From an uncultured Gammaproteobacteria bacterium (GTDB lineage: Bacteria > Patescibacteriota > Microgenomatia > Levybacterales > UBA12049), in the NCBI GenBank assembly GCA_964503265.1, contig CAZCYO010000001.1, positions 290,064 through 354,063 on the forward strand: a stretch of DNA of 64,000 nt. The letters run 5' to 3'. Every line of letters starts with the position of its first letter. Position 1 is the first letter of the stretch. The notes beneath the pieces were generated by a model. The model made no database searches. It was not told the origin of the DNA and saw only the letters and a program-made list of their open reading frames with translations. The translations under genes were made by a program, and so were the position numbers. Positions 29,234 through 63,124 of the stretch are shown here, one piece after another.

Positions 29234-29263
29234 GTCATCCTGGAGCGAAGCGATAGGATCTCA
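29234..29263 (+). repeat. Hairpin repeat copy (TGTCATCCTGGAGCGAAGCGATAGGATCTCA), left inverted end of GIY-YIG unit
   Basis: Member of the TGTCATYC...GRATCTCA family, ending 3 nt before the GIY-YIG ATG. Confidence 0.6.
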
Positions 29264-29265
29264 TA

Positions 29266-29502
29266 ATGAAACAGTACTACGTCTATATTGTTACCAATAC
29301 ATATAATACAACTTTTTATATTGGAATTACACATGACTTAATCAGAAGAATCTATGAACATAAGAGTAAATTACTAGATGGTTTCACAAAAAAATATAAT
29401 TTGACGAAATTAGTTTATTATGAAATCTACTCAGATCCTTTTTCCGCAATAACAAGAGAGAAATTTCTTAAAAATTTATTAAGAGTTAAGAAAATAGAAT
29501 GA
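29266..29502 (+). CDS. GIY-YIG nuclease family protein (UPF0213/COG2827-like, 78 aa)
   Basis: YYVYIVTN...YIGITHDLIRRIYEHK matches the GIY-YIG motifs. Confidence 0.85.
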   Translation: MKQYYVYIVTNTYNTTFYIGITHDLIRRIYEHKSKLLDGFTKKYNLTKLVYYEIYSDPFSAITREKFLKNLLRVKKIE

Positions 29503-29542
29503 ATAAAAGAAACGAATCCACTATTTAAAGAAATTGAGGTAT

Positions 29543-29581
29543 GAGATTCTATCAGCCACTACGAGGCTTCCAGAATGACAA
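29543..29581 (-). repeat. Hairpin repeat copy in inverted orientation (right end of GIY-YIG unit)
   Basis: Reverse complement TGTCATTCTGGAAGCCTCGTAGTGGCTGATAGAATCTCA. Confidence 0.6.
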
Positions 29582-29617
29582 TATATACTTATAATAAATC
29601 TACTATAAATTGTCATC

Positions 29618-29646
29618 TTGACACCTCCTTCTTTTCCTTTTATAGT
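29618..29646 (+). promoter_or_regulatory. Sigma70-like promoter candidate (TTGACA-17-TATAGT) for serine-biosynthesis leader
   Basis: TTGACA at 29618-29623, a 17-nt spacer, and TATAGT at 29641-29646. Confidence 0.45.
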
Positions 29647-29788
29647 GTTTGTACAGACGTTATATTCTGGACATTCCCCCAGAAGAGTCGCATACGGAAG
29701 CGTTAAGTTAGAAACGTATAAGTATAGCCGGAAGTCTCCGTTACAAGACAAGTAAAGTTCTTTCCAAGGCTAATTGGAGAGATAAAGT

Positions 29789-29838
29789 AAGGTGGCACCA
29801 CGAGTTAGCTCGTCCTTATATAAGGAGGAGCTTTTTTT
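29789..29838 (+). promoter_or_regulatory. T-box-like motif + intrinsic terminator in leader of serA::serB
   Basis: AAGGTGGCACCACG matches 12 of 14 positions of the T-box consensus AGGGTGGNACCGCG. It is followed by hairpin GCTCGTCC-TTATATAA-GGAGGAGC and TTTTTTT immediately before GTG 29839. The SD AAGGAGG lies in the 3' half of the terminator stem. Confidence 0.35.
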
Positions 29839-31656
29839 GTGAAAAAACCAACAATATTACTCACTAACCCAATTCACCCTGATGCAATTGCTCTATTAAA
29901 AGAGCATGCGGCGGTTACCGAAAAGTTCGGCATTTCTCACGATGATCTCGCTAAACATATTTCTCGTTTCGGTGCAGTCATTACTCGCTCAGATAACGCT
30001 ATTACACCCGCGATCATTGATGCAGCCACACATCTAAAAGTTATAGGCAGAGCAGCGATCGGTGTCGATACGATTGATATTCCTTATGCCACCAAAAAGA
30101 AAATAGCAGTCGTAAATGCACCTACAGGAAACTGTAACGCAGCTGCTGAACATACCATAGGTCTTATCTTCGCACTCGCTCGACACATACCAAATGCTCA
30201 CACAGATTTGACGAATGGTGTTTGGGGGAAACATAGATATATCGGCATGCAACTTGAAGGAAAAACACTTGGCATCATAGGACTTGGAAGAGTAGGCAAA
30301 CATGTCATGCGCATAGCAAAGAGCATAGGGCTTAGGGTCATTTATTACGATCCATTTGTTCGTTATGCTGACGCCAAACAAGTAGATCTTCACGAACTAC
30401 TCAAAATATCGGATTTCGTTACACTTCACACTCCACATACGAAACTGACAGATCAGCTCATAAACGAGCATACGTTAACACTCATGAAAAAATCAGCGTA
30501 TCTTATTAACTGTGCACGAGGAAAAGTCGTTAATGAAAGTGCTCTGATTACTGCACTTAAGAACAAACAAATTGCTGGAGCAGCACTAGATGTATATGAA
30601 CATGAACCGCTTATAGATAGTGAGTTGTCGAAACTTACGAATGTGGTTCTTACTCCTCATATTGGTGGCTCGACTGTGGAAGCACAACGCGCGACAGGGA
30701 TGGAAGTCGCGCAGGGAGTACTTAGTATTCTTCATGACGAAAAGCCAGAAAACTTACTAAATCCGGAGATCTATGCCCCACAAATAACATACTTCGACAA
30801 TGTCTCAACCATTATCTTTGACTGTGACAGTACACTTGTGACAATTGAAGGAATTGATGAATTAGCCCGGAATAAAGGTGTTGAAGCACAAATTATTCCA
30901 CTCACTGAGAAAGCGATGAATGGGGAGATAGACCCAGAAGATGTATTTAAAAAACGTCTTGAAATTATTAAGCCTACCAAAAAAGAACTTCTCGAATTGG
31001 GAAATCGCTATATTACCCATCTTCTACCTGGAACAAAAGAAATTATCAGAATGTTAAAAAAACAAGGAATTAACATATATATCGTGTCGGGAGGGTATGA
31101 TTTGCCCCTGCATATTCTGGCAGATTACTTGCATATACCGCGAAGAAATGTTCATGCAAATAAACTATTATTTACGAAAGATGGTGAATATAAAGCGATT
31201 GATAAATCAATTCCACTTTGGAAAAAAGGTGGGAAAAAGGAAGTTATCAATAATATATGTCATTCTGGAAAGCGAAGACTTTCCCAGAATCAAACTCTGG
31301 ACAAGAGAGGTCGAAGGCTCCCCCTGGGAGATGACAAAGAGGAAAATGGCAAAACAATCCTTGTGGGGGATGGTGTTACTGATGCACAGGCGAAAAGTGC
31401 TGTCGATATTTTTATCGGATTTGGTGGAGTTAAAAAACGTGAAGCGGTTAAAAAAGAAGCACATATTTACCTAGAATCACCCACACTTGCACCTCTTTTA
31501 CATATTGCAAATGAAAGTTTATGCAGGCATAATCGTATGAATATTGTTGAGCGAGAGTATTTTATTTCAGGACTAGATTACCTTCTCAATCCCGAAATGA
31601 CGACATTTGCAAGTCATCATCACAAAGAAGAAATTGTCCAACAATTATTACAATAA
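29839..31656 (+). CDS. Fusion: D-3-phosphoglycerate dehydrogenase (SerA-like) + HAD phosphoserine phosphatase (SerB-like)
   Basis: N-terminal half has GLGRVGKHVMRIAKSIGLRVIYYDP (NAD Rossmann) and a 2-hydroxyacid dehydrogenase layout. C-terminal half has IIFDCDSTLV (HAD motif I) and ILVGDGVTDAQAK (motif IV). GTG start with SD. Confidence 0.75.
   Translation: MKKPTILLTNPIHPDAIALLKEHAAVTEKFGISHDDLAKHISRFGAVITRSDNAITPAIIDAATHLKVIGRAAIGVDTIDIPYATKKKIAVVNAPTGNCNAAAEHTIGLIFALARHIPNAHTDLTNGVWGKHRYIGMQLEGKTLGIIGLGRVGKHVMRIAKSIGLRVIYYDPFVRYADAKQVDLHELLKISDFVTLHTPHTKLTDQLINEHTLTLMKKSAYLINCARGKVVNESALITALKNKQIAGAALDVYEHEPLIDSELSKLTNVVLTPHIGGSTVEAQRATGMEVAQGVLSILHDEKPENLLNPEIYAPQITYFDNVSTIIFDCDSTLVTIEGIDELARNKGVEAQIIPLTEKAMNGEIDPEDVFKKRLEIIKPTKKELLELGNRYITHLLPGTKEIIRMLKKQGINIYIVSGGYDLPLHILADYLHIPRRNVHANKLLFTKDGEYKAIDKSIPLWKKGGKKEVINNICHSGKRRLSQNQTLDKRGRRLPLGDDKEENGKTILVGDGVTDAQAKSAVDIFIGFGGVKKREAVKKEAHIYLESPTLAPLLHIANESLCRHNRMNIVEREYFISGLDYLLNPEMTTFASHHHKEEIVQQLLQ
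31258..31338 (+). repeat. 81-nt hairpin-repeat copy inserted in-frame in the SerB domain
   Basis: TGTCATTCTGGAAAGCGAAGACTTTCCCAGAATCA...GGGAGATGACAAA. Encodes about 27 extra residues (CHSGKRRLSQNQTLDKRGRRLPLGDDK) between HAD motifs III and IV. Confidence 0.55.
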
Positions 31657-31660
31657 TATA

Positions 31661-31740
31661 GTCATCCTGGAGCCCCGATGAACATCGGGACGATAGGATC
31701 TCACCAAGTGGGATTCTATCACTTCGTTCCAGAATGACAA
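31661..31740 (+). repeat. ORF-less inverted pair of hairpin repeats (MITE-like)
   Basis: GTCATCCTGGAGCCCCGATGAACATCGGGACGATAGGATCTCA at 31661-31703 and inverted TGTCATTCTGGAACGAAGTGATAGAATCC at 31711-31740, separated by 7 bp. Confidence 0.55.
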
Positions 31741-31749
31741 TAACTATAT

Positions 31750-32820
31750 ATGAACATTAACTTACGCATACCAGGACCAACCCCCATTCCACCACAAGTT
31801 CGTGAGGCACTCTCAGGTCAAATGATAAATCACCGTGGACCAGAATTTGCTGAAATTCTCTCTCGTGTTACCGCAAATCTTCAGACAGTATTTCAGACGA
31901 CAAATGACGTGCTCATCTATCCAAGTGCTGGAACAGGCATGATGGAAGCGACAGTTATCAATACCTGTAGTGCTGGAGATACAGTTATTGTGATTTCAAT
32001 CGGCACATTTGGAGAGCGATATGCAAATATTGCTAAGATTTTTGGACTGAATGTTATTACCGTTATTCATGATTCTGGACACGGTGCACATTTAGATGAA
32101 ATTAAAAAAGCACTTGATGCGAACCCAAATACGAAAGCCGTGTTTGTAACACATAACGAAACATCGACAGGTGTCACGAATGATCTTGAAAAAATTGCTA
32201 AGCTTATTAAAACATATGATGTACTCCTAATCGTGGATGCAGAATCATCACTTGGCTCAATTCCCGTTAAGATAGATGACTGGGGCATAGACGTAGCTCT
32301 CACAGCTTCACAAAAAGGCTTTATGTGTCCTCCCGGACTTTCTATGGTCAGTATCAGTAAAAAAGGGTGGGAAGCAGTTGAAAAATCGACACTTCCGAAA
32401 TTTTATTTTAACTTTCTCGATGCAAAACGATCTCTCCTTAAAGGACAAACTCCGTATACTCCCGCAGTCTCACTCTTTTTTGGAATTGACGTAGCGCTCA
32501 CTATGATGCTTGAGGAGGGACTTGAAAATATCTTCACTCGTCACAAAAGAATAGGAGAATTTACAAGAAACGAAATTAAGAAACTAGGATTATCACTTTT
32601 CCCATATGAAGAATTTGCATCAAATACTGTAACCGCGGTAAAAGTCCCAGAAGGAGTCGATGGAAAGAAGTTTTTAGACACTGCTCGAGTTGAACACGGA
32701 TTAGTACTTGGTGGTGGACAGGGAGATCTAAATGGTAAAATATTTCGCATTGGACATATGGGGTGGGTAAACGAAAAAGAAATTAGTGATGCGATAGCAA
32801 CTATTAAAATCATTTTGTAG
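31750..32820 (+). CDS. Class V aminotransferase (AGXT/SerC-like; probable phosphoserine aminotransferase)
   Basis: 356 aa. IPGPTPIPPQV...HRGPEF at the N-terminus and the PLP-lysine region LTASQKGFMCPPGL. The serC role is inferred from context. Confidence 0.65.
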   Translation: MNINLRIPGPTPIPPQVREALSGQMINHRGPEFAEILSRVTANLQTVFQTTNDVLIYPSAGTGMMEATVINTCSAGDTVIVISIGTFGERYANIAKIFGLNVITVIHDSGHGAHLDEIKKALDANPNTKAVFVTHNETSTGVTNDLEKIAKLIKTYDVLLIVDAESSLGSIPVKIDDWGIDVALTASQKGFMCPPGLSMVSISKKGWEAVEKSTLPKFYFNFLDAKRSLLKGQTPYTPAVSLFFGIDVALTMMLEEGLENIFTRHKRIGEFTRNEIKKLGLSLFPYEEFASNTVTAVKVPEGVDGKKFLDTARVEHGLVLGGGQGDLNGKIFRIGHMGWVNEKEISDAIATIKIIL

Positions 32821-32823
32821 CGT

Positions 32824-33678
32824 ATGGCTTTGGCAGAACTTCCCCCTACAGCGTTTTCCCATCAGATTGATCAAATCTCCTTCGGAGCTGTTCATGAAAG
32901 ATATGCAAAAAGCCCGTATGGTCAAAAACTTGAACAAGATGTTCGATTTCGTTGGTTTAAAGCAGAAAGTGTGTCAAATTCAGATTGGGAAGATCTTCTA
33001 GGATCAGACGTAAATAACTTGCGACATTTAAATCAATCATACGGATTAGCTAGACGATTTATTATGCGAAATCATAATCCAGGAATTAGTGATCGTGGCT
33101 CTGTATCACCAGATGCACTATTTACTCCTAAAGAACAGCAACTATTCTTATTTACAGCCATAGCGCATGACTGGGCAGAAGCGGAAGTCGGAGATATACA
33201 GTTTGGTACCAAAAGTGAAACGGATGCAGAGAGTGAGAACATGATTTTGCGCAGAATTATTGGTGAGATGCTGCCAGATGTTGATCCAACAGAAAGTCAA
33301 CTGCTTGGAGATCAAGTAGTAGGAATTTTGGACGATACGAGTTCAAAACTAGGAAAAGCATTTCATGTCGTTGAACGCCTTGGATACTTGCGAACAGGAC
33401 TTACCGCATGGAAAAAAAGTCAAGAAATGGCTGGTGATGAACAACACGGATTACAATTATTAACATTAAATGTAACTGGGAGACACGTGCCACATCTTCT
33501 TTCGTATAAAGAGACATATCCAGCAGTAGGTTCATTTTTTACTTCTCTTGCTCCACGTTTAGAAGAAGTTTTTGAAACAGGTAATCACATTGCTATGACG
33601 GACCACCCACAAAATACACAAGTAGTTCGAGATATGTTTCAATTTGCTCATACTGTATGGAGAACGCATACTCCATAA
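32824..33678 (+). CDS. HD-domain hydrolase candidate (YfbR-like 5'-deoxynucleotidase)
   Basis: AIAHDWAEAEVGDIQFGTK resembles the HDxxE...GD motif of YfbR. An upstream His sits in FGAVHERY. Confidence 0.35.
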   Translation: MALAELPPTAFSHQIDQISFGAVHERYAKSPYGQKLEQDVRFRWFKAESVSNSDWEDLLGSDVNNLRHLNQSYGLARRFIMRNHNPGISDRGSVSPDALFTPKEQQLFLFTAIAHDWAEAEVGDIQFGTKSETDAESENMILRRIIGEMLPDVDPTESQLLGDQVVGILDDTSSKLGKAFHVVERLGYLRTGLTAWKKSQEMAGDEQHGLQLLTLNVTGRHVPHLLSYKETYPAVGSFFTSLAPRLEEVFETGNHIAMTDHPQNTQVVRDMFQFAHTVWRTHTP

Positions 33679-33813
33679 CCAAGTCCCTATACTTGCTTTG
33701 TATTGACAGAACCATTATACTTGATGCGCCTTCAAACTAGCTTCATAGATGTAACATTTCAAAGTTTCAGATACATACTTTGCATTTGTAAAACTATGCG
33801 GTTTTGAAACAGT

Positions 33814-36735
33814 ATGAATACAGACAAAATTATTATTAAAGGTGCTCGTGAGCACAACTTAAAAAATATTGACATGGAGATCCCGAAGAACAAGTTAATT
33901 GTTTTGACAGGGCTTTCTGGAAGTGGAAAATCATCACTTGCGTTCGATACTATTTATGCAGAGGGACAACGACGATACGTTGAATCCCTTTCTTCATATG
34001 CGAGACAGTTCTTAGGAACGATGAAAAAGCCTGATGTAGATCTCATTGAGGGGTTGTCCCCAGCTATTTCTATCGACCAGAAGTCTACGTCACACAATCC
34101 ACGCTCAACTGTCGGGACAGTAACAGAGATTTATGATTATATGCGTTTACTTTTTGCACGCGTTGGTCATCCACACTGTCCTAATTGCGGTCGTGAAATT
34201 GCACAACAATCAAAAGAGCAAATCACTAATGCAATTATAGGACTTCCTGAACGGTTCCCACAGGAAGGAAAGAAACCACTGCGTGTTATGATTCTAGGTC
34301 CGCTCGTTAAGGATCGAAAGGGAGAATACACAGAACTTTTTAACAGTCTTCGCAAAAGAGGATACCAAAAGGTCAGAATTGATGGCACAGTCTATCCACT
34401 TGATGATGTGCCGGTTCTTATTAAGACAAATAAACATACAATTGAACTTATCCTCGATTCATTGTCAATCACAAAAGAAACAGAACGAACGAGACTCGCC
34501 ACTGACGTCGAGCAAGCGCTCCAATTTGGAAATGGTGAAATGATTGTCTCGATTATTAATGATGCATCATTTGATATTCCAGAACGGCCAACTGATATGG
34601 ATGATCAGTTATTCTCTGAAAAATTTGCTTGTCCGTTTTGTAATATTTCAATTAATGAAATTGAACCACGTATTTTTTCTTTTAATACTCCACATGGTGC
34701 GTGTCCGACGTGTTCTGGTCTTGGAAATATTTTAGGTGTTGATGAAGAATTAGTATTTAATCCAAATTTATCAATAAATGAAGGCGGTATTATGCCATTC
34801 TTCAACCTCGCAGAAAATGATACGTGGTTTTCTCGAACCTTTAAAACATTCTGTCGAGAAAATGATATTTCTCTAACCCAACAACTCTCAGAAATGCCTT
34901 CTGAAAAAAAACAATTACTCTTAAACGGAACAGGGGATAAAGAATATTATGTCGAAGGAGAAAATAGACTTGGTAGATCGACAGTTATTTCTGAGCCGTT
35001 TCGAGGAATCGGATTTGAACTTCGAAAACGATTTAATGAATCTGATTCTCAATTCATGAAAACCCAAATTGAGAAATTCATGAAACATGATACATGCCCT
35101 GACTGTCATGGGGCACGACTAAGAAAAGAAGCACTTTCAGTAACCATAGGTGGCAAATCAATCGTTCATGTGAGTGATTTACCGATCGGAAAAGCTCTCG
35201 CATTTGCAAATAGTTTGGATGGCATCCTTTCAGATAGAGAAAAAGAAATTGCGAAGTTAATTTTACGTGAAGTGAGACAGCGACTTGGATTTTTAGTCGA
35301 TGTCGGACTAGATTACTTAACTCTTGCTCGAACAGCAGCGACACTTGCTGGTGGAGAGGCACAGCGTATTCGATTAGCATCTCAAATTGGAAGTGGACTA
35401 ACAGGCGTGCTTTATGTACTTGATGAACCTTCGATTGGACTGCATCAACGTGATAATACGAGACTTATTGAAACATTAAAGCGACTACGAGATATTGGAA
35501 ATAGTGTAGTTGTCGTTGAACACGATGAAGATACGATGTACGCAGCTGATTATATTTTTGACTTTGGGCCTGGTGCCGGATTAAACGGAGGCTCAATTAT
35601 TGCTCAGGGAACAGCCGTAGAACTTGAAAAAAATCCGAATTCTATCACTGGCCAATATTTATCTGGCAAAAAGAAAATCCGAATAAATAAAAGTGCACCT
35701 CAAAATATTGTCGGTACGACAGAATATAAAGAAATTAACATTGTTGGTGCGTCAGAACATAATCTGAAAGATATTACTGTTTCAATTCCTATGAATAAAT
35801 TAGTCGTCGTTACAGGAGTATCAGGAAGTGGCAAATCGACTCTCATTAACGATATTCTCTTTCATGGCCTCATGCAAATGAAGAATTCATACCACAAAGA
35901 AAGACCTGGAAAAGTTATTGCGATCCAAGGACATGAACATATTCGTAATATTTTCGCAATTGATCAATCACCAATCGGCCGTACACCACGAAGTAATGCA
36001 GTTACTTATACCGGTGCATTTTCATATATCAGAGATATCTTTGCCAGTACGAAAGAAGCAAAAATAAGAGGATATGGACCTGGACGATTCTCTTTTAACG
36101 TCAAAGGTGGACGATGTGAAGCATGTGAAGGTGAAGGACAAATTAAAATTGAAATGCAATTTTTACCAGATGTATATATTCAATGTGAAATTTGTCATGG
36201 CAAACAATATAACAACGAAGCACTTGAAATTCTCTTTAATGGTAAATCAATTGCAGATGTCCTCGATATGAGTGTTAAAGAAGCACTCGAATTTTTTTCG
36301 TTTATGCCAGGACTTGCTCATCGACTCCAAACGCTTAATGATGTTGGACTTGGATATATTGGTATTGGACAGCCAGCACCAACGCTTTCTGGTGGAGAAG
36401 CACAGCGCATTAAACTGGCGACAGAACTTTCAAAGCGAGGACGAGATGCGATGTATATCTTAGATGAACCAACAACTGGACTTCATTTCGCAGATTTAGA
36501 AAAACTGTTACAGGTACTTCGCCAACTCGTAGACAAGGGTAACTCTGTCGTCGTTATCGAACATAATTTAGATGTAATTAAAAACGCAGATCATATTATT
36601 GATTTGGGACCTGAAGGTGGAGATGGTGGAGGAGAGATCGTGGCAACAGGTACACCTGAAGAGATAGCTGAAAATCCTGATTCCTGGACAGGAAAATTTC
36701 TTAAAGTGCTTCTGGAGAAAGAAAAAACGCGCTAA
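33814..36735 (+). CDS. uvrA: Excinuclease ABC subunit A
   Basis: 973 aa. Two ABC modules (GLSGSGKSS and [17 protein letters not shown] twice) and the zinc-finger cysteines CPNCGREI and CEACEGEG. Confidence 0.95.
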
Positions 36736-36829
36736 ACACAAGAAAATTCATCGGAAATCAATTACAATTAATAATATTGCTCTATTGTTACAGTCCTTCA
36801 TCGCTAAAAAACAATAGAATAATAGAACA

Positions 36830-38701
36830 ATGAAAAAATTTATTAACACTTTTGTCATTTTCTTTTCCTCTTTCATTCTTTATTCATTAGTTCTTATTCC
36901 AATCTCTCACGCTGCATCAAAGAATTTTTCGACAAATCTTGCTGGTACGTATACTGTTAATGAAAACGCAGTAACTCATGCTGACCTAACCGTTTCTTTA
37001 AAAAATACAACATCACAGTGGTATGCTTCATCCTATTCATTTCAGGTCGGATTTAAAAGTGTTTCAAATGTATCAGCGTATGACTCTGGAGGCGCTATTA
37101 CTCCTACAGTAACACGAACAGATGTTGGAACAGTTGTTTCTGTGGTTTTTAACGATAAGGTTGTGGGACTGGATAAACAAAATGTATTTCACGTATCATT
37201 TGACACTATCGATATTGCTCAAAAAAATGGGCAGATATGGGAAATTAATATACCAGGAGTAGCAAATCAGGAAGATTTTACTGATTTTAATGTTGAAGTA
37301 AAAGTTCCTAAAAATTTTGGTAAACCTACCTATATCAAGCCTGACCAGGGGAATAGTAGTCTTGTCTTTAATAAAGAACAATTAGGAAAATCAGGTATTT
37401 CAATCTCTTTTGGTGAAGCACAGTATTATGCATATGATTTAACATATCATTTAAAAAATAGTAACGTATTTCCAATTCCCGCAACCATAACACTTCCGCC
37501 TACGACTAACTATCAAGAAGTTATTTTAGATTCATTACATCCAAAACCACGCACTGTTACCAAAGATGCTGATGGTAACTGGATTGCGTCATACCAACTG
37601 CTTCCATCTCAAAAGTTAAACGTAGTAGCCAAAGGACGAATTGCAGTTTCACTTACCCCTAAGAGTGAACCCTTAACTCAAAAAGATAAAGCAGTCTATT
37701 TAGCAGAGCAGCCGTACTGGACTATTTCAAATGCTCGAATTAAAAAACTTGCAGCTGATTTAAAAACACCTGAAGCAATTTATGAATATGTTGTTAAGAC
37801 ATTGTCTTATGATTTTTCCAGAGTCACAGATAACAAGCCTCGTCTGGGTGGAGTGAATGTTCTATCGACTCCAAATTCTGCTGTTTGCCTGGAGTTTACT
37901 GATCTTTTTGTGACGCTTGCACGTGCAGCGGGAATACCTGCCCGTGAAATGGATGGATTTGCATTTACAGAAAATACGAGACAGCGTCCACTTTCAAAAG
38001 TCCAAGATATTCTTCACGCATGGCCAGAATACTACGACGACACGAAACGTGCATGGATCATGGTTGATCCCACATGGGGAAATACAACAGGTGGTATTGA
38101 TTATTTTCATACACTTGATTATGACCATGTCGTTTTTGCTATAAAAGGAGCAGATAGTACGTCTCCTCGTCCAGCTGGAGGATATAAATATGCTGGTGAC
38201 GAAAATAAAAAAGATGTTATTATCACTTTTGCTGATAGTATTACACCCGCAGACCCTGTACTACAAGTACAGCCAATTCTCCCAAGCCGTGCATCGACAG
38301 GGTTTGATATCATGGGAAGCGTGCTCATTCAAAATAATGGTGATCGCGAATCTCCCAAAAAAGAAATAACCATCACCGCATCAAATCTTAGTCCATATAC
38401 CCAAACCATCACAGTTCCGCAGCTTCCACCATTTGGAAAAATAGATCTTCCTGTTTCGTTTTATAAGGAGAAACTTTTGACAAACAAAACATCCACAATT
38501 ACAATACAGTTTGCTGACACTGTTTTTACGAGAGAAATTGCCATTAGCCCACTTGGATTAACACGAAATCAGCTACTTGGAGGAATTATTTTTGGTATTT
38601 CAACGATCATCTTACTTATCACTGCCTACAAAGCCAGGAGTCTATATGTTCTTCGACGAACACGGGAAAATTCTTTACGTGGGGAAAGCGAAGGATCTTA
38701 A
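36830..38701 (+). CDS. Secreted transglutaminase-like superfamily protein with C-terminal TM anchor
   Basis: Signal peptide. The Cys-His-Asp core appears as NSAVCLEFTDLFVTLARAAGIPAR...HAWPEYY...MVDPTWG. Confidence 0.6.
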   Translation: MKKFINTFVIFFSSFILYSLVLIPISHAASKNFSTNLAGTYTVNENAVTHADLTVSLKNTTSQWYASSYSFQVGFKSVSNVSAYDSGGAITPTVTRTDVGTVVSVVFNDKVVGLDKQNVFHVSFDTIDIAQKNGQIWEINIPGVANQEDFTDFNVEVKVPKNFGKPTYIKPDQGNSSLVFNKEQLGKSGISISFGEAQYYAYDLTYHLKNSNVFPIPATITLPPTTNYQEVILDSLHPKPRTVTKDADGNWIASYQLLPSQKLNVVAKGRIAVSLTPKSEPLTQKDKAVYLAEQPYWTISNARIKKLAADLKTPEAIYEYVVKTLSYDFSRVTDNKPRLGGVNVLSTPNSAVCLEFTDLFVTLARAAGIPAREMDGFAFTENTRQRPLSKVQDILHAWPEYYDDTKRAWIMVDPTWGNTTGGIDYFHTLDYDHVVFAIKGADSTSPRPAGGYKYAGDENKKDVIITFADSITPADPVLQVQPILPSRASTGFDIMGSVLIQNNGDRESPKKEITITASNLSPYTQTITVPQLPPFGKIDLPVSFYKEKLLTNKTSTITIQFADTVFTREIAISPLGLTRNQLLGGIIFGISTIILLITAYKARSLYVLRRTRENSLRGESEGS

Positions 38702-40004
38702 GTCTCGCGTTTCGTCGTATTTTACCAGTCCTCACGAATTCGAACCGAAAACACAGCAACTTGTCACCCACATTCAGAAAATTAAAATAACGATCGTCGA
38801 ATCTGAACTTGAATCATTACTACTTGAAGCGTTTTATATTAAAAAATTTACTCCTAAATATAATATTCGTCTGGTAGATAACAAAACATATCCGATGATT
38901 AAAATTACTGCAAAAGATACATATCCTGCTGTTTTTATGACTCGAAAAATAACTGATAGTAAATCAATATACTTTGGGCCATATCCTAGCTCTAGTAGTG
39001 TAAAACTCGTTCTAAAAACGATTCGTCGAGCGTTTCCCTATATGTCGACGACCAATCATCCAAAGAGAACGTGTTTATATAACCATATCGGGCTTTGTCC
39101 ATGCCTTCCAGTCAATAATTCACCAGAGGTAAAACGTGAATATAAAAAAAATATTAAACAAATTATTCGAATATTGGAAGGCGAATCGCCTAAAATTATA
39201 AAAGAATTAGAACGAGAACGAGATAAGATGAGTAAAGAAGAGAAATATGAAGAAGCAGCACTTCTCCAAAAACGGATTGCAGCTATGAATTTTATCACCA
39301 GTCCATTCCATCGACCAGGTGAATATGACATCAATCCAAACCTACGTGAAGATATTAGAGTAAACGAACTGAATGATTTAAAGAATGTATTAAATAGCGC
39401 CGGTTACCGAATTGAAAAATTAGACAAAATAGAGTGTTATGACATCTCACATATCCAAGGTACTAACACGACGGCTTCTCTCGTGGTATTTGTTAAAGGA
39501 GAGAAAGAATCTTCACTCTATCGAAAATTTAAAATACAATTAGAAAAAACTCCTGATGATTTCGCTTCAATGCAAGAAGTGCTCAGGCGTCGTCTAAAAC
39601 ACACAGAATGGGAATATCCTGACTTAGTGATAGTCGATGGAGGAAAAGGTCAGGTATCATCAGCACTGGAACTGTTTAATGAACTAAATATCACAATTCC
39701 ACTAATCGGACTCGCTAAACGTGAAGAAACCATCGTAGTGCCACTTACACATCCACAAATATCTAACAATCTGTCATTCCCGCGAAGACGGGAATCCAGT
39801 CATATAAATGAAGATCCAATAAATTCCCGTCTCCTTTCGCAGGTTCGTGACCTTCGCGGAAATGATAAAGAAAACTTCCAAGAAATTGTTATCCCTCATT
39901 CATCGAAGGCGCTTCACCTTATGATGAGAATTCGGGATGAAGCGCATCGGTTTGCGGTAACGTATCACCGCAAGCTTCGCTCAAAAGCTTTTATCGAGAA
40001 ATAG
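38577..40004 (+). CDS. uvrC: Excinuclease ABC subunit C
   Basis: N-terminal GIY-YIG PGVYMFFDEHGKILYVGKAKDLKSRVSSYF, a central UvrC/RNaseH-like region, and the C-terminal IRDEAHRFAVTYHRKLR. Carries a 32-codon repeat insertion at 39772-39867. Confidence 0.9.
   Translation: MEELFLVFQRSSYLSLPTKPGVYMFFDEHGKILYVGKAKDLKSRVSSYFTSPHEFEPKTQQLVTHIQKIKITIVESELESLLLEAFYIKKFTPKYNIRLVDNKTYPMIKITAKDTYPAVFMTRKITDSKSIYFGPYPSSSSVKLVLKTIRRAFPYMSTTNHPKRTCLYNHIGLCPCLPVNNSPEVKREYKKNIKQIIRILEGESPKIIKELERERDKMSKEEKYEEAALLQKRIAAMNFITSPFHRPGEYDINPNLREDIRVNELNDLKNVLNSAGYRIEKLDKIECYDISHIQGTNTTASLVVFVKGEKESSLYRKFKIQLEKTPDDFASMQEVLRRRLKHTEWEYPDLVIVDGGKGQVSSALELFNELNITIPLIGLAKREETIVVPLTHPQISNNLSFPRRRESSHINEDPINSRLLSQVRDLRGNDKENFQEIVIPHSSKALHLMMRIRDEAHRFAVTYHRKLRSKAFIEK
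39772..39867 (+). repeat. 96-nt nested-palindrome repeat inserted in-frame in uvrC
   Basis: Terminal inverted repeats TGTCATTCCCGCGAAG and CTTCGCGGAAATGATA (14 of 16 positions complementary). Internal hairpins ATTCCCG/CGGGAAT. The length is a multiple of 3 and it adds about 32 aa relative to the E. coli UvrC C-terminal region. Confidence 0.6.
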
Positions 40005-44927: not shown

Positions 44928-44999
44928 TGTCATTCCCGACTTGACGATTTATCCTAAATTTATTCTCTAATCAAATTGTACTGTTGAGTATCGGGAATC
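44928..44999 (+). repeat. Hairpin repeat copy with long loop (TGTCATTCCCGA...TCGGGAATC)
   Basis: Begins 1 nt after the rnhB stop. Arms ATTCCCGA and TCGGGAAT. Confidence 0.4.
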
Positions 45000-52683: not shown

Positions 52684-52690
52684 ACACATA

Positions 52691-52764: not shown

Positions 52765-52818
52765 ACATCGTTAATTTACCCTCTTTCTTTATCCTTCATT
52801 TTTTTCTACTATAGATGT

Positions 52819-53883: not shown

Positions 53884-53914
53884 TACGTCTCGCCTCAATC
53901 CATGATAATCCGAT

Positions 53915-54604: not shown

Positions 54605-54606
54605 TA

Positions 54607-54700
54607 TGTCATTCTGGGAAACAGCGATATCAGTTTTCTTGATTATTTCGTTGCACTGCAAACAAGCTGTCATCCCCGACCTGATCGGGGATCCAGAATT
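54607..54700 (+). repeat. Nested hairpin-repeat copies between ABC ATPase and permease genes
   Basis: Outer TGTCATTCTGGG...CCAGAATTACA. Inner TGTCATCCCCGACCTGATCGGGGATCCAG at 54668-54696. Confidence 0.5.
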
Positions 54701-54737
54701 ACAATAGATCCGCCAACTGGCGGAAGACAAATAAACT

Positions 54738-55928: not shown

Positions 55929-56901
55929 GAATTACGTAAACAATCCAACAATGAATCAATCAAACAATAAAACAGTAAAAAAATCACTTTTCTCATTTAT
56001 TAAATTTTTTGTCGGTTGGCCGCTTTCTTTGACTGCATTATATTTTATCGGAGCAAAGACAATTACTCAGCTACAGGACCATCCAATTGCTTTTTCTGAG
56101 CTTTCATATAGTTCGCTTTTTCTATCAACTATCTTTTTTCTTCTGTATTTTTTCTCTAGGGGATATATTTGGCAAAAAGAATTATCGTTTTTTGGTTACA
56201 GTCTTACTACCTATGAATCGATTTATCATTGGGCAGCATCTGAGTTAAAGAGATATATTCCAGGAAATATTTGGTCCTTTTTAGGTCGTGGCATTCGATT
56301 TGGAGAAATGGGAGTTACAAAAAAACATATCGTGACTGCGCTCATTCTAGAAGCACAGTTGATCGTACTTGGAGCATTAGTAATTTCACTTCCTGCAATT
56401 ATTTTACTAGTAACACCATACGTGCCGTTTATTCAGCCACAATTACTTATGATTATCATTATTTTCATGACATGTATTATATTGACGCTATTTTTTTATC
56501 AAAACATATTTTATAAATATGTAACATTGTCATTCGTTCCTATGATATTTTCTCCATTATCAGCACAAAAACATATGTCTCTATTATTTTTAAGCAGTCT
56601 TTCATATTTATTCTTTGGACTTGGATTTTATTTTTCAATCGTTTCTTTTATTCATATCCCATCCAACTTCTTTATGATTACCATCAGTGGACTCGTACTC
56701 GCATATTTAGTAGGGTATCTATCACTTATTACACCAAGTGGTCTTGGTGTAAGAGAAGTTGTTGCCGGAATAATTCTGACAACGATTGCCAGTACATCTG
56801 TAGTAAATTTCGCTGTACTTTTCTCTCGTATTTTTTTAACGTTAGTCGAACTTATCTTCGTAGCAATTGCTTTTATGTTTTATAAAAATCATCAAAAATG
56901 A
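55885..56901 (+). CDS. Polytopic membrane protein, LPG_synthase_TM/UPF0104 flippase-like family
   Basis: IPGNIWSFLGRGIRFGEMG and the C-terminal ITPSGLGVREVV motif. The true start is probably an internal Met. Confidence 0.45.
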   Translation: MHLDYRQLRHYVMIKNYVNNPTMNQSNNKTVKKSLFSFIKFFVGWPLSLTALYFIGAKTITQLQDHPIAFSELSYSSLFLSTIFFLLYFFSRGYIWQKELSFFGYSLTTYESIYHWAASELKRYIPGNIWSFLGRGIRFGEMGVTKKHIVTALILEAQLIVLGALVISLPAIILLVTPYVPFIQPQLLMIIIIFMTCIILTLFFYQNIFYKYVTLSFVPMIFSPLSAQKHMSLLFLSSLSYLFFGLGFYFSIVSFIHIPSNFFMITISGLVLAYLVGYLSLITPSGLGVREVVAGIILTTIASTSVVNFAVLFSRIFLTLVELIFVAIAFMFYKNHQK

Positions 56902-58319: not shown

Positions 58320-58363
58320 TTGTTACATTACTAAATTATTCTATTGTTCTTATTAAAAATTCT

Positions 58364-58456
58364 TGTCATTCTCAGCTGGACTGAGAATCTCTTTGATATT
58401 TTCTTATAAATAAAATAGGTATTTCTTTTAGATTCTCATTTTCATAAGAATGACAA
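58364..58456 (+). repeat. ORF-less inverted pair of hairpin repeats (MITE-like)
   Basis: TGTCATTCTCAGCTGGACTGAGAATCTC at 58364-58391 and inverted CTTTTGTCATTCTTATGAAAATGAGAATC at 58431-58456, flanking 39 bp. Confidence 0.55.
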
Positions 58457-58535
58457 AAGTAAGATAAGTAGTATTATCCAACAACGAAACATTATAGCAA
58501 TCGAACAATGTACCATCTATACTAACTATACTGCC

Positions 58536-59345
58536 ATGATTACTGTCATAAAAGCCAACGGTGAAAGAGAACCATTTAGTGAAGAAAAAGTACTTCGTTC
58601 CATTGAGCGAGCTGGCATTCCTGAAGATTTACGCAATACAGTTTTGGCACATGTCAAAGAAAAATTAGTTGAAAATATTACAACCACAGAAATTTATCGA
58701 CATATTCTTGATTGTTTTGATGAAACAAATAATTTATACAGTAAAGCAAAGTATAGTCTTAAGCAAGCACTTATGTTACTCGGGCCTACTGGATATCCAT
58801 TTGAAGACTATGTTGCACGAATTCTTGAAGCATTAGGATATAAAACTGAAGTTCGACAACTGCTTATGGGAGGATGTGTGGGACATGAAGTCGACGTCAT
58901 ATCTGAAAAAAATCATAAACGTTCAATGATTGAGGCAAAATTTCATAATAATCCAGGTGTTAGATCAGATGTTCAAGTTGCACTTTATACAAAGGCTCGT
59001 TTTGAAGATCTAAAACTCAAGCATCACCTCGATGAAGCGTGGATAGTCACAAATACTAAAGCTACAACAGATGCTATAGCCTATGCGAACTGCGTAGGAA
59101 TGAAGGTAGTTAGTTGGAGTTATCCTGAGAACCAAGGATTACGAGAGCTTATCGAAGAGACCAAAATGCACCCAGTAACTGTACTCACGTCACTTTCTCT
59201 CGCACAAAAAAGAACTCTCCTTAAAAACCATATCGTAACCTGTTTAGAAATCAAACAAAAACCATCTCTTCTTCATGTGCTTTTCTTAGGTGATAAAGAA
59301 CGAAAAGAAGTCATGGAGGAAGTACGATTTATTTGTGAAACATAA
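58536..59345 (+). CDS. ATP-cone domain fused to Mrr-like restriction-endonuclease-fold (PD-(D/E)xK) domain
   Basis: N-terminal VIKANGEREPFSEEKVLRSIERAG (ATP-cone). C-terminal FEDYVARILEALGY...GHEVDVISEK...IEAKF (D...E-x-K). Confidence 0.5.
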   Translation: MITVIKANGEREPFSEEKVLRSIERAGIPEDLRNTVLAHVKEKLVENITTTEIYRHILDCFDETNNLYSKAKYSLKQALMLLGPTGYPFEDYVARILEALGYKTEVRQLLMGGCVGHEVDVISEKNHKRSMIEAKFHNNPGVRSDVQVALYTKARFEDLKLKHHLDEAWIVTNTKATTDAIAYANCVGMKVVSWSYPENQGLRELIEETKMHPVTVLTSLSLAQKRTLLKNHIVTCLEIKQKPSLLHVLFLGDKERKEVMEEVRFICET

Positions 59346-59385
59346 TCCTCACGCCTCTATTACTCTGCAGTAGCACAAATCAGTG

Positions 59386-60672
59386 CTATAGTCCAAATCT
59401 AACCAATTTTTCTCTCTCATAGGCATCGGGGCCAAAGCCGTTTGGGACTGTAGTTAATTTATCTGAATCAAGTAGAAATCCATTTCTGATTGTATGATCA
59501 CCAAATCGGTCATTAATTGTATCTATTACATGTGCGATTTTATTTTTGCGAAGTACATCACTAAATAAATCGAGAGGAATTGAGGAAGAAGGGGAGAGAA
59601 AGCTTACATAAACTCCGATTCTTCGTACATACCGAATTTCTTCTGGTAGCGTACGAAATCCCGACGAAGGATCTGAAAGCAAACGATAAACGATGTCATA
59701 CATTTCTTGTCCCGTATCAAAGTATGAGCTAAAGGTTTTATGAACAGATATATACGATCCACCACCTAGTGATATTCCCATATGCCGTGCTTTCATCTTA
59801 ATTCGACGAAGCTTAATTCCTAACTCTTCACACAGTTCATACACATTCTGAAGGATAGTACGCTCATCATATTCATTTTCTGGAAGACAGTATTGCCTCC
59901 CAATAGATTTAGCGGGTTCTGTTTCTGTATACGGATTTACTTCTGAAAAATCAATTCCTTGACCTACATTCCAGAGAAAAGTTCCTTCAACTACTCCAAA
60001 TTCAGCCATGAGAGAAGACTTAGTAGTAAGAGAAAGTTTGGGCAACGTATATATACCCATTCTATGTAAACGTCTGCAAATTCGAGATCCAATGCCACAA
60101 ATTTCAGTTAGTTCAGTATGTGCATATATTTCCGAAAGATTGTGAGGTGTAATAGTGACAATACCATTGGGCTTTTTAAGACCTGAACCCAATTTAGCCA
60201 GTAATTTATTATGAGAAACACCAACTGATACAGTAATATACGGTCCAATTTCATTTTCGATTCGTTTTTTCAATTTCGAAATTAGTCCATAAACACCACC
60301 AAACAAATGTTCGGTTTTAGTAATATCCATGAACAATTCGTCAATCGAGAACACTTCGACAGAGGGAGAAAAATCTTTGCAGATATTTATAAATTTTTTA
60401 CTAACTTCCCAATACCTCACAAAATTAGCAGGTGTTAGAAGAAGATCGGGACAAAGCGTTTCGGCTTTATAGACATTCATTGCCGTTTTAACACCAAAAC
60501 GCTTTGCCTCACGACTAGCTGCGATTATGCACGTTCTTCCATTTGTTGCAGTTACTCCAAGCGGTTTACCCCTAAACACTGGATTATACTGTTGTTCAAC
60601 GCTTGCAAAGAATGAATCAAAATCGATATGAAGAATCTTCCTGCCTGAGGACTGTTCACTCATATCATGCAT
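59386..60672 (-). CDS. dinB: Y-family DNA polymerase (DinB/Pol IV-like)
   Basis: ILHIDFDSFFASVEQQYNPVFRGKPLGVTA...IIAASREAKRFGVKTAM matches the canonical Y-family N-terminus. Confidence 0.85.
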   Translation of the reverse strand: MHDMSEQSSGRKILHIDFDSFFASVEQQYNPVFRGKPLGVTATNGRTCIIAASREAKRFGVKTAMNVYKAETLCPDLLLTPANFVRYWEVSKKFINICKDFSPSVEVFSIDELFMDITKTEHLFGGVYGLISKLKKRIENEIGPYITVSVGVSHNKLLAKLGSGLKKPNGIVTITPHNLSEIYAHTELTEICGIGSRICRRLHRMGIYTLPKLSLTTKSSLMAEFGVVEGTFLWNVGQGIDFSEVNPYTETEPAKSIGRQYCLPENEYDERTILQNVYELCEELGIKLRRIKMKARHMGISLGGGSYISVHKTFSSYFDTGQEMYDIVYRLLSDPSSGFRTLPEEIRYVRRIGVYVSFLSPSSSIPLDLFSDVLRKNKIAHVIDTINDRFGDHTIRNGFLLDSDKLTTVPNGFGPDAYEREKLVRFGL

Positions 60673-60744
60673 ACGTAAAATATACTAGAAAAATACACGA
60701 AATGAAATAGCTCAAAGAATATCGATTACGGTCAATGTCCTGCG

Positions 60745-60975
60745 TTAGTTTTTTTTGTAGGCTGAGTAGGGGTTACACGAAAGAACACGGATGAATGAAA
60801 GTCGCACCGCTTTAAAAAAAGGGTATGTATTGAAACAATGAATTGCATATTCAGAACAAGAGACTTTATAAATACACTGCGCCCCTAAAGCCGCAAAAAA
60901 AGGAGATAAAATCACCTGATACCCCCGAATAAAAATAATTGCAATCTTCTTCATAAAATCACGTGTCATTCTCAT
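60745..60975 (-). CDS. yidD: Membrane protein insertion efficiency factor YidD
   Basis: IRGYQVILSPFF...CIYKVSCSEYAIHCF...RVLSCNP matches the YidD signature. The first four codons are supplied by a hairpin repeat, so the real start may be the MKK at codon 8. Confidence 0.8.
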   Translation of the reverse strand: MRMTRDFMKKIAIIFIRGYQVILSPFFAALGAQCIYKVSCSEYAIHCFNTYPFFKAVRLSFIRVLSCNPYSAYKKN

Positions 60976-61043
60976 GAAAATGAGAATCTACTAGATACTT
61001 CTCTAGTCATCCTGGAGCGAACGAAGTGAGTGATAGGATCTCA
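60964..61043 (+). repeat. Two tandem hairpin-repeat copies
   Basis: TGTCATTCTCATGAAAATGAGAATCTAC at 60964-60989 and GTCATCCTGGAGCGAACGAAGTGAGTGATAGGATCTCAC at 61006-61043. Confidence 0.55.
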
Positions 61044-61078
61044 CATATAATTCTATATACTTCTTCACTCACCGCTTA

Positions 61079-62149
61079 CTACAGTCCATAGGTTGAAAGT
61101 GGTGCATTCCCTACATGATCTCGTTTTAATTTCATAAGATAGGAGTCACACTGCACACGTCCTGCTTCTGTCGTTACCGCTGCTGTAAATCCATGAGATA
61201 GTAATTCTTTAATCGCTTGATCGCTATAAGAACCGTAAGGGTATGCAAAAACAGTACTCATATACCCGATATGCTGTACAAAATCCTGAGTCGACATCGT
61301 CAATTCAAAATCTATTCTTTCTTTATCACTTTGTCCAAGGGCATTATGAGACCACGTGTGATTATACAGTGAGACATGTGGGTCATGAGACATTTCTATC
61401 ACATTCTTCCATGTCATGTAATCTTTATTTTCAAGCAGGCCTGTCGGTATCATAAAGTTTCCTATCACATTATATTTTTTAAGCAGCGGCCACACATAGG
61501 TATACATATCGATATACCCGTCATCAAATGTTAAAACAATACTGCGATCTGGAACTGACGTGTGTTCTCGCAGTGCCTTAACCAAACTATCAAGAGTAAT
61601 AGGTGTATATGTTTGGTCAATCAAATACTGGAGCTGCTTTTCGAAGATATCACGATCGACAGTGAGTTGAGCATGGCCGAGTTTCGTTGCTTCTGAAAGA
61701 GGTTGGACATGGTGATACATAAGAATAGGCACTGTTAGACAGTATCCTGCAGACACAGGGGTAGCAGTCACGGCTATTCCTTCTGCTTGTGCTTTTTTAA
61801 TGATCTTACTTTCATATGAATTAATTTCTTGTGTTTTATGATTAGGCGAAAAAGCATATTTGGTCCCACTATTTTGGAAGGAAGAGAAAATAAGAACTCC
61901 AATTAAAAAAAGAAAAAAACTTAACGAAATAACTATAAGAAGTGGGAGAGGAAGGCGATAAGAGGATGAGGGAGGAAGAAAATGAATTTTCTTTTTCGAC
62001 AGAGTCTTTCTCTTAAGTGATTTAGCACGAGCCATGCTTGAATTGTAATAAAAGTAGCCATAAATTACAACATCGCTCTCCTCTGTATCCATTTTTTTGA
62101 CATGAATCATTGGTATGTAGTGGGCGTCCGTCTGTTGACGAACGCCCAC
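61079..62149 (-). CDS. Polysaccharide deacetylase (NodB family), membrane anchored
   Basis: IVLTFDDGYIDMYTYVWPLL and YNHTWSHNALG. N-terminal TM. Confidence 0.8.
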   Translation of the reverse strand: MGVRQQTDAHYIPMIHVKKMDTEESDVVIYGYFYYNSSMARAKSLKRKTLSKKKIHFLPPSSSYRLPLPLLIVISLSFFLFLIGVLIFSSFQNSGTKYAFSPNHKTQEINSYESKIIKKAQAEGIAVTATPVSAGYCLTVPILMYHHVQPLSEATKLGHAQLTVDRDIFEKQLQYLIDQTYTPITLDSLVKALREHTSVPDRSIVLTFDDGYIDMYTYVWPLLKKYNVIGNFMIPTGLLENKDYMTWKNVIEMSHDPHVSLYNHTWSHNALGQSDKERIDFELTMSTQDFVQHIGYMSTVFAYPYGSYSDQAIKELLSHGFTAAVTTEAGRVQCDSYLMKLKRDHVGNAPLSTYGL

Positions 62150-62166
62150 CAGAAATTCTGTGATTG

Positions 62167-62766
62167 TTACTCCTGGGGAGTAATCTGGCTGATTAAACGA
62201 GCACTCAAAAGAGTGAGTAGCTCGCTATCTTCCTTGATCTTTTCCCACAACTCAGGATCGTGCTTACGAATCCAGAGCTCGAGGAGAGTAAGTGAACTAG
62301 CGTGAGTCACAAGAGCATATGCACGCTCTTTAGCGTCCTCAGCATAGTACTCAAGGACAGCTTGGCTGGCAATATCTAGTGTAATTCCAGCCGCTTCCAG
62401 AAAGCCCGCACCCATTCCTTCACCTTCACGGAGAAGACCAAGGAGCAGGTGCATTGAGCTGATATAGTGATGACCAAGCAAACGTGATTCATGGATAGCT
62501 AGCCTGATCACAGTGATCAAACGGGGAGTCATTTGTATCCTTTCCGTTACAGGAGACTCTCCCTTAGTACAGACAAACTCGACGTTCGAACGGAGCTTAG
62601 CGGAATCGATCTGCAATTGAGCTAGAATAGGCGATTCTCCTTTAACAAGACCGAGCAACAAGTGCTCAGTCCCAATATAGTGGTGATTAAGACGCCATGC
62701 TTCAGTTTGTGCATCTACGAATGCTTGACGAGCATCCTCGGTAAATCGACCAAACTTGTCTGTCAC
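62167..62766 (-). CDS. Stand-alone Clp N-terminal (double Clp_N repeat) domain protein
   Basis: Two repeats: FTEDARQAFVDAQTEAWRLNHHYIGTEHLLLGLV and RLAIHESRLLGHHYISSMHLLLGLL. GC is somewhat elevated. Confidence 0.6.
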   Translation of the reverse strand: MTDKFGRFTEDARQAFVDAQTEAWRLNHHYIGTEHLLLGLVKGESPILAQLQIDSAKLRSNVEFVCTKGESPVTERIQMTPRLITVIRLAIHESRLLGHHYISSMHLLLGLLREGEGMGAGFLEAAGITLDIASQAVLEYYAEDAKERAYALVTHASSLTLLELWIRKHDPELWEKIKEDSELLTLLSARLISQITPQE

Positions 62767-63027
62767 TTGAGAACTCCTTACTATTCCTCCATTCCCACTG
62801 AATAGAGAATTGCCAAAGAAAAGGAGAACGAATTCTCATCTTTTTAAGCAATCCTCTTAGTAAGAGAATAAAACTAATCACAGAATATTAATGTGCTAAT
62901 TAAGGCTAAGAACGCAATTTGTTCTCGCTTGGGAAGTATTATACCAAACTATAAGTTTATTTATCATGAGTCAACTCCACTCGACTAGTAATTTCTTCTC
63001 TTTGCAGTACAATACATTTAATATCAT

Positions 63028-63124
63028 TGTCATTCCCTTGAAAAAGGGAATCTATTAAATATACCTTTTTAACTAGATATAAAGGGAAATTTAACAGATT
63101 CTCAGTCAAGCTGAGAATGACAGC
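63028..63124 (+). repeat. ORF-less inverted pair of hairpin repeats (MITE-like)
   Basis: TGTCATTCCCTTGAAAAAGGGAATCT at 63028-63053 and inverted TGTCATTCTCAGCTTGACTGAGAATC at 63098-63124, flanking 44 bp. Confidence 0.55.

Follow-up and report, generated by a model that had tools for sequence, protein, structure and literature searches.

The ssn cassette and its repeat family

The 64-kb window of DNA analysed here comes from a host that is likely a member of the Patescibacteria, Microgenomates group, and the named relatives of its Pol IV belong to Candidatus Levybacteria, at 57–59% identity. The 34-kb part of the window between 29.2 and 63.1 kb carries a family of short, oriented hairpin repeats together with ssn, a small gene for a GIY-YIG nuclease that has repeats on both sides. 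It is highly probable that the repeats are Ssn-related motifs (SRM), arranged as an SRM-ssn-SRM cassette and non-autonomous copies that inserted recently in this lineage.

Chenal et al. (2025; Nat Commun 16:2388, PMC11893778) described the Ssn family as site-specific nucleases of single-stranded DNA (ssDNA) that hold promise for biotechnology. In that work the dRS3 repeat (ATTCCC-N8-GGGAAT) was extended to an oriented 28-nt sequence, the NTS (CGTCATTCCCGCGMAVGCGGGAATCYRG), and the NTS was generalised to the SRM. Across bacterial phyla, SRMs border genes whose products are small GIY-YIG proteins of a single domain (SsnA, cd10448), and they are found on both sides of 42% of ssnA homologues (PMC11893778). 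SsnA of Neisseria meningitidis binds the hairpin as ssDNA only, cuts a few nucleotides upstream and does not bind RNA; the homologues of N. elongata, of N. wadsworthii and of Wolbachia also cut ssDNA near their own motifs, and the Ssn system modulates transformation in Neisseria (PMC11893778). The NTS-ssnA-NTS arrangement was called insertion sequence (IS)-like by the authors, who hypothesised its mobility but did not demonstrate it (PMC11893778). Patescibacteria are not named in the main text of that paper, and nothing beyond it was found in the literature on GIY-YIG transposases, miniature inverted-repeat transposable elements (MITEs) or cd10448.

The protein encoded by the window ssn matches only the GIY-YIG family in Pfam (PF01541, E 3e-14, residues 3–75). 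Nearly all of its 478 database homologues are 92–98 amino acids long, as is the 92-residue product of the intact allele (P0121) in L092, a sister strain with the same ftsJ-ssn-T-box-serA locus. The window gene has recently been cut to 78 amino acids by a nonsense mutation, with TGA in place of the TTA of L092. A recoded TGA was dismissed as the cause of the short product because long open reading frames (ORFs) of the window read in the standard code and the sister strain has TTA. The truncation removes N84, an Asn that is invariant in a 20-sequence alignment, together with the C-terminal segment, a loss that probably leaves the local copy inactive.

An N. gonorrhoeae orthologue of SsnA was taken from PLSDB for comparison; it has 94 amino acids, the residues Y6, Y17 and E64, and NTS copies on its flanks. 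The intact allele aligned with it pairwise without gaps over 88 of 92 residues at 45% identity (E 3e-28), the window allele was 49% identical, and tblastn recovered the relationship with an E value of 1e-13 in a 7.3-Gb database. These values correspond to the published homology criterion (E < 1e-10, coverage of at least 75%), with the N. gonorrhoeae orthologue and not the N. meningitidis protein as reference. Residues Y7, Y18 and E65 of the intact allele align with Y6, Y17 and E64 of gonococcal SsnA, the three positions mutated in the published work (PMC11893778). By its sequence the window gene is a homologue of ssn. In NCBIfam and the PDB the nuclease gave a weak match to UPF0213 (PDB 1zg2, E 0.2) and SLX1 and a sub-threshold match to a group I intron endonuclease; they were set aside as sharing the GIY-YIG fold only. 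Two PLSDB entries labelled as plasmids, NZ_CP119140.1 and NZ_CP119142.1, are in fact chromosomes of N. gonorrhoeae (2.17 Mb), and the ssnA orthologue within 1881729–1883141 of the former is unannotated in the PLSDB table.

The repeat family comprises at least 14 well-formed and four degenerate copies (Table 1), and no Rfam family covers them at gathering thresholds. The copies follow a common plan of T, GTC, a stem opening with AT, a loop, the complementary stem and C (usually C-T/C). Most often the copies form head-out inverted doublets of 65–97 bp, in which the minus-strand partner may be degenerate (31296–31336, 39815–39867 and 54704–54732). In the window TGTCATYC was counted 15 times, compared with 5.3 ± 2.5 times in dinucleotide shuffles (maximum 11; 0 of 100 shuffles reached 15). 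A structural detector, which required GTC, a stem of at least 5 bp starting with AT, a loop, the complementary stem and C, gave 17 matches against 4.65 ± 2.27 in shuffles (maximum 11 among 200), and with stems of at least 6 bp gave 9 matches against 1.3 ± 1.15 expected, so that the repeats are about three to four times as numerous as chance would give. Family membership was defined by shared TGTCATYC/GRATC ends, which 14 of the detector matches have, all of them at 29.2–63.1 kb; those at 1651, 12481 and 22376 were left out as chance matches because they are without these ends.

The first-pass annotation, made from the letters of the sequence, had proposed just such a family, with two sub-types, inverted pairs and a pair bracketing a GIY-YIG ORF. 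Its copies were recovered within 1–2 nt, the over-representation it expected was found within the window, and the bracketing pair corresponds to A1 and A2. Two details needed revision. It had placed some copies across start codons, but none overlaps one and several end 2–8 nt ahead of one; and its nested copy at 54607–54700 was replaced by a decayed type-A-like fragment followed by a head-out pair.

The two sub-types, here named A and B, differ in consensus and in structure. Type B (TGTCATTC-NN...NN-GAATC) folds as DNA hairpins with z-scores between −3 and −4, except for two copies at −2.0 and −0.8, and its stem always starts at the A of GTCAT. In type A (TGTCATYCTGGA-variable-GATAGRATCTCA) an outer stem of 5 bp is followed by an internal loop, GGA/GAT, that is conserved and by an inner stem-loop that varies. 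A metagenome scan with the pattern GTCATYCTGGA-N(4-34)-GATAGRATC found type A in at least 120 stretches. Among the matches listed there were 138 unique copies, and in 133 of these Y and R are Watson-Crick partners (74 T-A and 59 C-G, with 3 T.G and 2 C.A). The first base of the variable insert is G in 112 of these copies and its last base is C in 110; pairing of at least 2 bp between the two ends of the insert is seen in 115 of the 138, compared with 9 of 138 after shuffling. Although the folding of type A is not significant in the nearest-neighbour energy model, its pairing is supported by covariation.

Table 1. Hairpin copies and the ssn gene in the window.
Feature	Position	Strand	Remarks
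A1, type A hairpin (putative SRM) left of ssn, TGTCATCCTGGAGCGAAGCGATAGGATCTCA	29233..29263	+	Ends 2 nt ahead of the ssn ATG
ssn-like gene, single-domain GIY-YIG nuclease, 78 aa	29266..29502	+	TGA at 29500–29502; ancestral stop at 29542–29544
A2, type A hairpin (putative SRM) right of ssn, head-out	29542..29580	−	Overlaps the ancestral ssn stop codon
Head-out doublet in the SerA/SerB fusion ORF, in frame	31258..31336		B1 31258–31291 +; degenerate copy 31296–31336 −
Type A head-out doublet without ORF, serAB-serC spacer	31660..31739		A3 31660–31703 +; A4 31709–31739 −
Doublet inside uvrC	39772..39867		B2 39772–39799 + (near-exact Neisseria NTS/dRS3); degenerate copy 39815–39867 −
B3, single type B copy with a long loop, after rnhB	44928..44999	+	
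Decayed type-A-like fragment, TGTCATTCTGGGAAACAGCGATATCAG	54607..54635	+	
Head-out doublet, ABC-MacB spacer	54668..54732		54668–54696 + (matches the published SRM string); 54704–54732 −, GTCTT variant
Head-out doublet B5/B6	58364..58455		B5 58364–58391 +; B6 58430–58455 −
B7, single type B copy	60964..60989	+	B6 with one mismatch
A5, single type A copy, in tandem with B7	61005..61043	+	
Head-out doublet B8/B9	63028..63122		B8 63028–63053 + (dRS3 ATTCCC-N8-GGGAAT); B9 63097–63122 −; doublet ends 10 nt ahead of the NUDIX gene start

The first-pass annotation had known of no such family in this kind of genome, but gene and repeats both correspond to the Ssn/SRM system. The oriented hairpins A1 and A2 lie within 500 bp on both sides of the window ssn, which agrees with the published criterion. 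The copy at 39772–39799 differs from the 28-nt NTS by 2 mismatches, and the dRS3 pattern was found at 39776–39795 and 63032–63051 against 0 expected; the match to NTS/dRS3 is limited to those copies, the remaining ones being variants. The published SRM string HGTCWYN(0-2)YYVSBRHN(0-5)WNVSBRGN(0-2)RNCYNB, which was hand-built from 29 genomes (PMC11893778), matches at 39772–39799 and 54668–54696, with 0.11 matches expected.

Relatives of ssn were found among 185,579 species genomes in groups of Patescibacteria, Cyanobacteria, Zixibacteria, Alphaproteobacteria, Bacteroidota and others. At 75 homologue loci from many phyla with both flanks available, head-out GTCAT hairpins were present on both sides in 46 and on at least one side in 66. 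Type A borders both the window ssn and its 74%-identical homologue P0005, which lies between the genes for lysyl-tRNA synthetase and Ham1, a context unrelated to that in the window, and has the head-out flanks TGTCATTCTGGAG...CGATAGAATC and TGTCATCCTGGAG...CGATAGGATC. Among the metagenome matches listed there were 26 head-out adjacent pairs of type A, 18 of them with a gap of at most 57 bp and four or five with a gap of 204–391 bp, approximately the size of an ssn gene. The flanks of P0005 and these gaps indicate that cassettes with the gene and doublets without it are both present elsewhere. From the sequences available type A appears to be tied to this Ssn subclade. No cognate ssn for type B was found within the 64-kb window, and type B presumably depends, or depended, on an ssn paralogue elsewhere in the genome.

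Occupied and empty sites in related genomes

Relatives for comparison of the insertion sites were reached through homologues of UvrA and Pol IV, which gave two related genomes that are syntenic with the window. The first is represented by several metagenome samples (L003–L009) with UvrA at least 90% identical, of which L004 (JGI sample 3300063172) was used; the second is represented by L090 and L091, two parts of a single 57.6-kb Logan contig with a Pol IV 79% identical to that of the window. All eight testable positions were empty in these relatives. The ftsJ-serA spacer that holds the ssn cassette is 615 bp long in the window but 233 bp in L004 and 201 bp in L091, neither of which contains ssn. 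The serAB-serC spacer with A3 and A4 measures 93 bp, compared with 2 bp in L004, and the spacer downstream of rnhB, which contains B3 and measures 159 bp in the window, aligns without B3 in L004 and is 85 bp long in L091. The ABC-MacB spacer with the B4 pair is 133 bp against 1 bp in L090, the DUF2079-Mrr spacer with B5 and B6 is 216 bp against 15 bp in L090, and in the region of B7 and A5 both copies are missing from L090.

The remaining two positions are intragenic, and both are occupied by doublets that are translated as in-frame insertions of 27 amino acids, as the first-pass annotation had suggested. The SerA/SerB fusion protein has 605 amino acids in the window, is 27 amino acids shorter in L004 and is without the insert at this position in L091. 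In UvrC the doublet adds a net 27 amino acids to the RNase-H-like domain, and the insert is missing from both relatives. The copies are therefore insertions and not native sequence, the distinction on which the first-pass annotation had made its reading depend.

The serAB-serC spacer of L091 is occupied by a type B doublet, whereas the doublet found there in the window is of type A; the L091 doublet is a second, independent insertion. Overall, no copy was found in L004 (22.9 kb) and one doublet in L090 and L091 (41.5 kb), compared with at least 14 copies in 34 kb here.

The doublets at 58364–58455 (in reverse orientation) and 63028–63122 are homologous through their spacers, which identifies the doublet of approximately 95 bp as a copied unit. 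Single hairpin variants also recur in new combinations: B5 and B9 are 1 nt apart, as are B6 and B7, and B8 is 1 nt apart from the left hairpin of the L091 doublet (7811–7835), suggesting recombination or reassortment among copies. No significant target-site duplication was found at 10 units by local alignment of left and right flanks (all p ≥ 0.10 against shuffles). Repeats of approximately 11 nt at serAB-serC, in the window and in L091, were considered and rejected, as was a duplication that contains TGTCAT at the site of the cassette; neither is better than shuffled flanks.

Two further observations concern these sites. An ENA contig with low coverage that belongs to the same strain type (L002, 1300–1695) differs from window positions 29176–29252 by a 77-bp deletion from the 3' end of ftsJ to the loop of A1, which could be a real hairpin-associated event or an assembly artefact. 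The ORF listed for uvrC (38577–40004) has 475 amino acids compared with 425 in the relatives, and its first 23 residues, from a TTG start, are without counterpart there; UvrC is short in this lineage, with GIY-YIG, UVR and RNase-H-like domains and no match to a helix-hairpin-helix domain.

Affinities of the repeats and their possible mode of movement

The closest resemblance is to the Ssn/SRM system itself, in which oriented hairpins, with GTCAT as their 5' end and ATC as their 3' end, likewise flank ssn and many extra copies lie near the gene. A mobile-looking hairpin family with a GIY-YIG gene is in this sense already known, and the window does not represent a new kind of system. It differs in that AT-rich stems or the type A loop (CTGGA...GATAG) are found in most copies, which fall outside the published string, in that two copies are intragenic compared with 2% of copies inside genes in N. 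meningitidis (PMC11893778), and in its likely patescibacterial host and truncated nuclease. Insertion is directly evident here from filled and empty sites, whereas in the published work it was hypothesised only (PMC11893778).

Several observations weigh against the identification of the family and of Ssn as its motor. The published SRM string misses both ssn-flanking copies, type A as a whole and the AT-rich type B copies, so that the putative assignment of type A to the SRMs is drawn from common architecture and gene association and not from the published definition. The string having been hand-built from 29 genomes, its failure to match reflects its breadth more than family identity. No NCBIfam model matches the nuclease. 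The NTS copies nearest to gonococcal ssnA are head-in, in contrast to the head-out copies here and at most homologue loci, so the geometry is not a universal one. Among the matches listed, a detectable ssn was present in only 6 of the 120 type A metagenome stretches, and the window ssn is truncated ahead of N84, so that its activity is not to be assumed. A factor elsewhere in the genome, rather than Ssn, may move the repeats.

Comparison with other repeat systems bears on how the copies could spread. The first-pass annotation had likened the pairs to the two ends of a MITE, and this holds for the terminal inverted repeats (TGTCATYC...GRATGACA), which are held in common with the gene-carrying element, for the small size and for the insertion polymorphism between relatives. 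It does not hold for the target-site duplication, which was not detected at the 10 units, nor for the termini, which are individually folding hairpins; moreover the gene-carrying element encodes a nuclease without known transposase activity. More features agree with the repetitive extragenic palindromic sequences (REP), bacterial interspersed mosaic elements (BIME) and REPIN elements that have REP-associated tyrosine transposases (RAYT). Common to both are short oriented hairpins with a conserved 5' motif, copying as inverted doublets, an associated gene flanked by the repeats, no target-site duplication (none detected here) and recognition on ssDNA, which is expected here by analogy with the characterised Ssn enzymes. 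The differences are a GIY-YIG nuclease in place of an HUH tyrosine transposase (IS200/IS605-like Y1), GTCAT in place of GTAG, no RAYT detected among window ORFs of at least 80 amino acids, and doublets that do not fold into one long hairpin because their two hairpins are unlike each other. With no target-site duplication detected and with hairpin ends, the logic of the system is nearer to REP/BIME-RAYT and IS200/IS605 than to cut-and-paste MITEs. The translated in-frame copies and the small-genome, symbiont-like host also suggest an analogy with Rickettsia palindromic elements, and Rickettsia is among the SRM-rich genera (PMC11893778); the units here are shorter (65–97 bp) and defined by GTCAT/ATC-flanked hairpins, and the likeness is by description only.

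A tentative proposal is that the cassette and doublets represent a class of transposable element that is driven by a GIY-YIG ssDNA nuclease, makes no target-site duplication and is completed by the host. If Ssn here acts like the Neisseria and Wolbachia enzymes, it would bind the SRM hairpin only in ssDNA, such as that arising in replication, in repair or as incoming transforming DNA, and its nick would fall a few nucleotides 5' of GTCAT. In a cassette or head-out doublet, one nick would then lie just outside each end, on opposite strands. GIY-YIG nucleases are not known to join strands, and the insertion of the nicked units would have to be finished by replication or repair in the host. If the proposal is correct, the lineage catches this class in action: the elements would have spread in recent bursts, struck one intergenic site more than once and entered uvrC and serAB in frame, with their nuclease gene decaying afterwards, and the "IS-like" remark of 2025 would become a documented family of mobile elements in candidate-phyla bacteria.

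An unlikely alternative is that the repeats serve the host, with Ssn cutting incoming or exposed ssDNA by the SRMs and so modulating recombination or transformation near particular genes, and with the copies spreading by recombination and gene conversion. A function of this kind has been demonstrated in N. meningitidis (PMC11893778), and the recurrence of like variants in different combinations here (B5 and B9, B6 and B7, B8 and the left L091 copy) suggests recombination among copies. However, copies are located in uvrC, in serAB and between overlapping operon genes with no pattern of gene class seen, close relatives can be without copies altogether, and the nuclease is a pseudogene in this strain. 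Intragenic sites, absence from relatives and a decayed nuclease look like selfish spread and not like a conserved host function, although selfish spread and a host-level role are not mutually exclusive. The findings support repeats that are mobile and largely selfish.

It is rather improbable that the hairpins were moved in trans by an enzyme encoded outside the window, such as a RAYT, an IS200/IS605-type Y1 HUH transposase or an IS110/Piv-type recombinase, with Ssn either a passenger or a nuclease, of host or selfish nature, that does no more than recognise the repeats. The REP/BIME-RAYT-like traits set out above, namely oriented hairpins, inverted doublets, a repeat-flanked gene and no detectable target-site duplication, would fit such an enzyme, as would the missing strand-joining activity of GIY-YIG nucleases and the abundance of copies beside a truncated ssn. 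The analogy to REP/RAYT was also made in the published work, and a recombinase is known to target dRS3 in Neisseria (introduction of PMC11893778). Against it, Pfam detected no transposase domain, be it Y1_Tnp, IS110, DDE or another, among window ORFs of at least 80 amino acids, ssn is the gene that co-occurs with the hairpins across phyla, and type A borders both the window ssn and its relative in another context.

A role at the RNA level, as terminators, attenuators or sites of RNA stability or processing, is very improbable: many copies do lie directly after stops or before starts, and a loose terminator pattern is present at 54709–54724 and 58368–58388, but most copies are without a T-tract (the terminator scan matches 2 of 18), two doublets are translated inside ORFs, Rfam has no match at gathering thresholds, N. 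meningitidis SsnA does not bind RNA (PMC11893778), T.G is as rare as C.A at the covarying pair (3 and 2 of 138 among the matches listed) and so gives no sign of RNA wobble tolerance, the inverted pairs mean that both orientations are transcribed, and the empty orthologous positions argue against a conserved regulatory role.

For the Ssn/SRM system as such, the window adds a likely patescibacterial host and a hairpin class, type A, whose conserved CTGGA/GATAG internal loop is missed by the published string, so that SRM counts obtained with the string are likely underestimates. It further adds sites that are naturally filled or empty in close relatives, one of them with independent insertions, and insertions that are translated within genes of DNA repair and serine synthesis.

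Neighbouring loci

The ssn cassette lies directly upstream of the −35 box of a strong promoter-like sequence, TTGACA-17-TATAGT, at 29618–29646; at this place the relatives have ATTGTCAT followed directly by ATTGACA. The region 29618–29838 contains a T-box leader ahead of serC and of the ORF for the fusion of SerA (phosphoglycerate dehydrogenase) and SerB (phosphoserine phosphatase). The leader matches Rfam RF00230 at 29651–29820 with 51.9 bits, below the gathering score of 93, and an E value of 9e-11, and it is kept in L004, L091 and L092.

A tightly packed minus-strand envelope-polysaccharide cluster with a G+C content of 0.30–0.37 occupies approximately 1–21 kb and contains no hairpin copies. 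It is headed by the gene for a 1558-amino-acid protein (16009–20685) with several GT2 and GT4 glycosyltransferase domains. Near the other end of the window, the gene for a Clp_N-domain protein (62167–62766) is missing in the syntenic L090, where the gap between the deacetylase and NUDIX genes is 108 bp.

A variable island at 22000–25400 lies between tRNA-Lys (21904–21976) and a UPF0020 methyltransferase gene (25409). In the window it consists of ORFs without a Pfam match and with a raised G+C content of 0.41–0.45. At the same position L004 has an ArsB/CitMHS transporter, and L091 has SMODS, S_4TM, HTH and PLD genes that look like a CBASS-type defence set.

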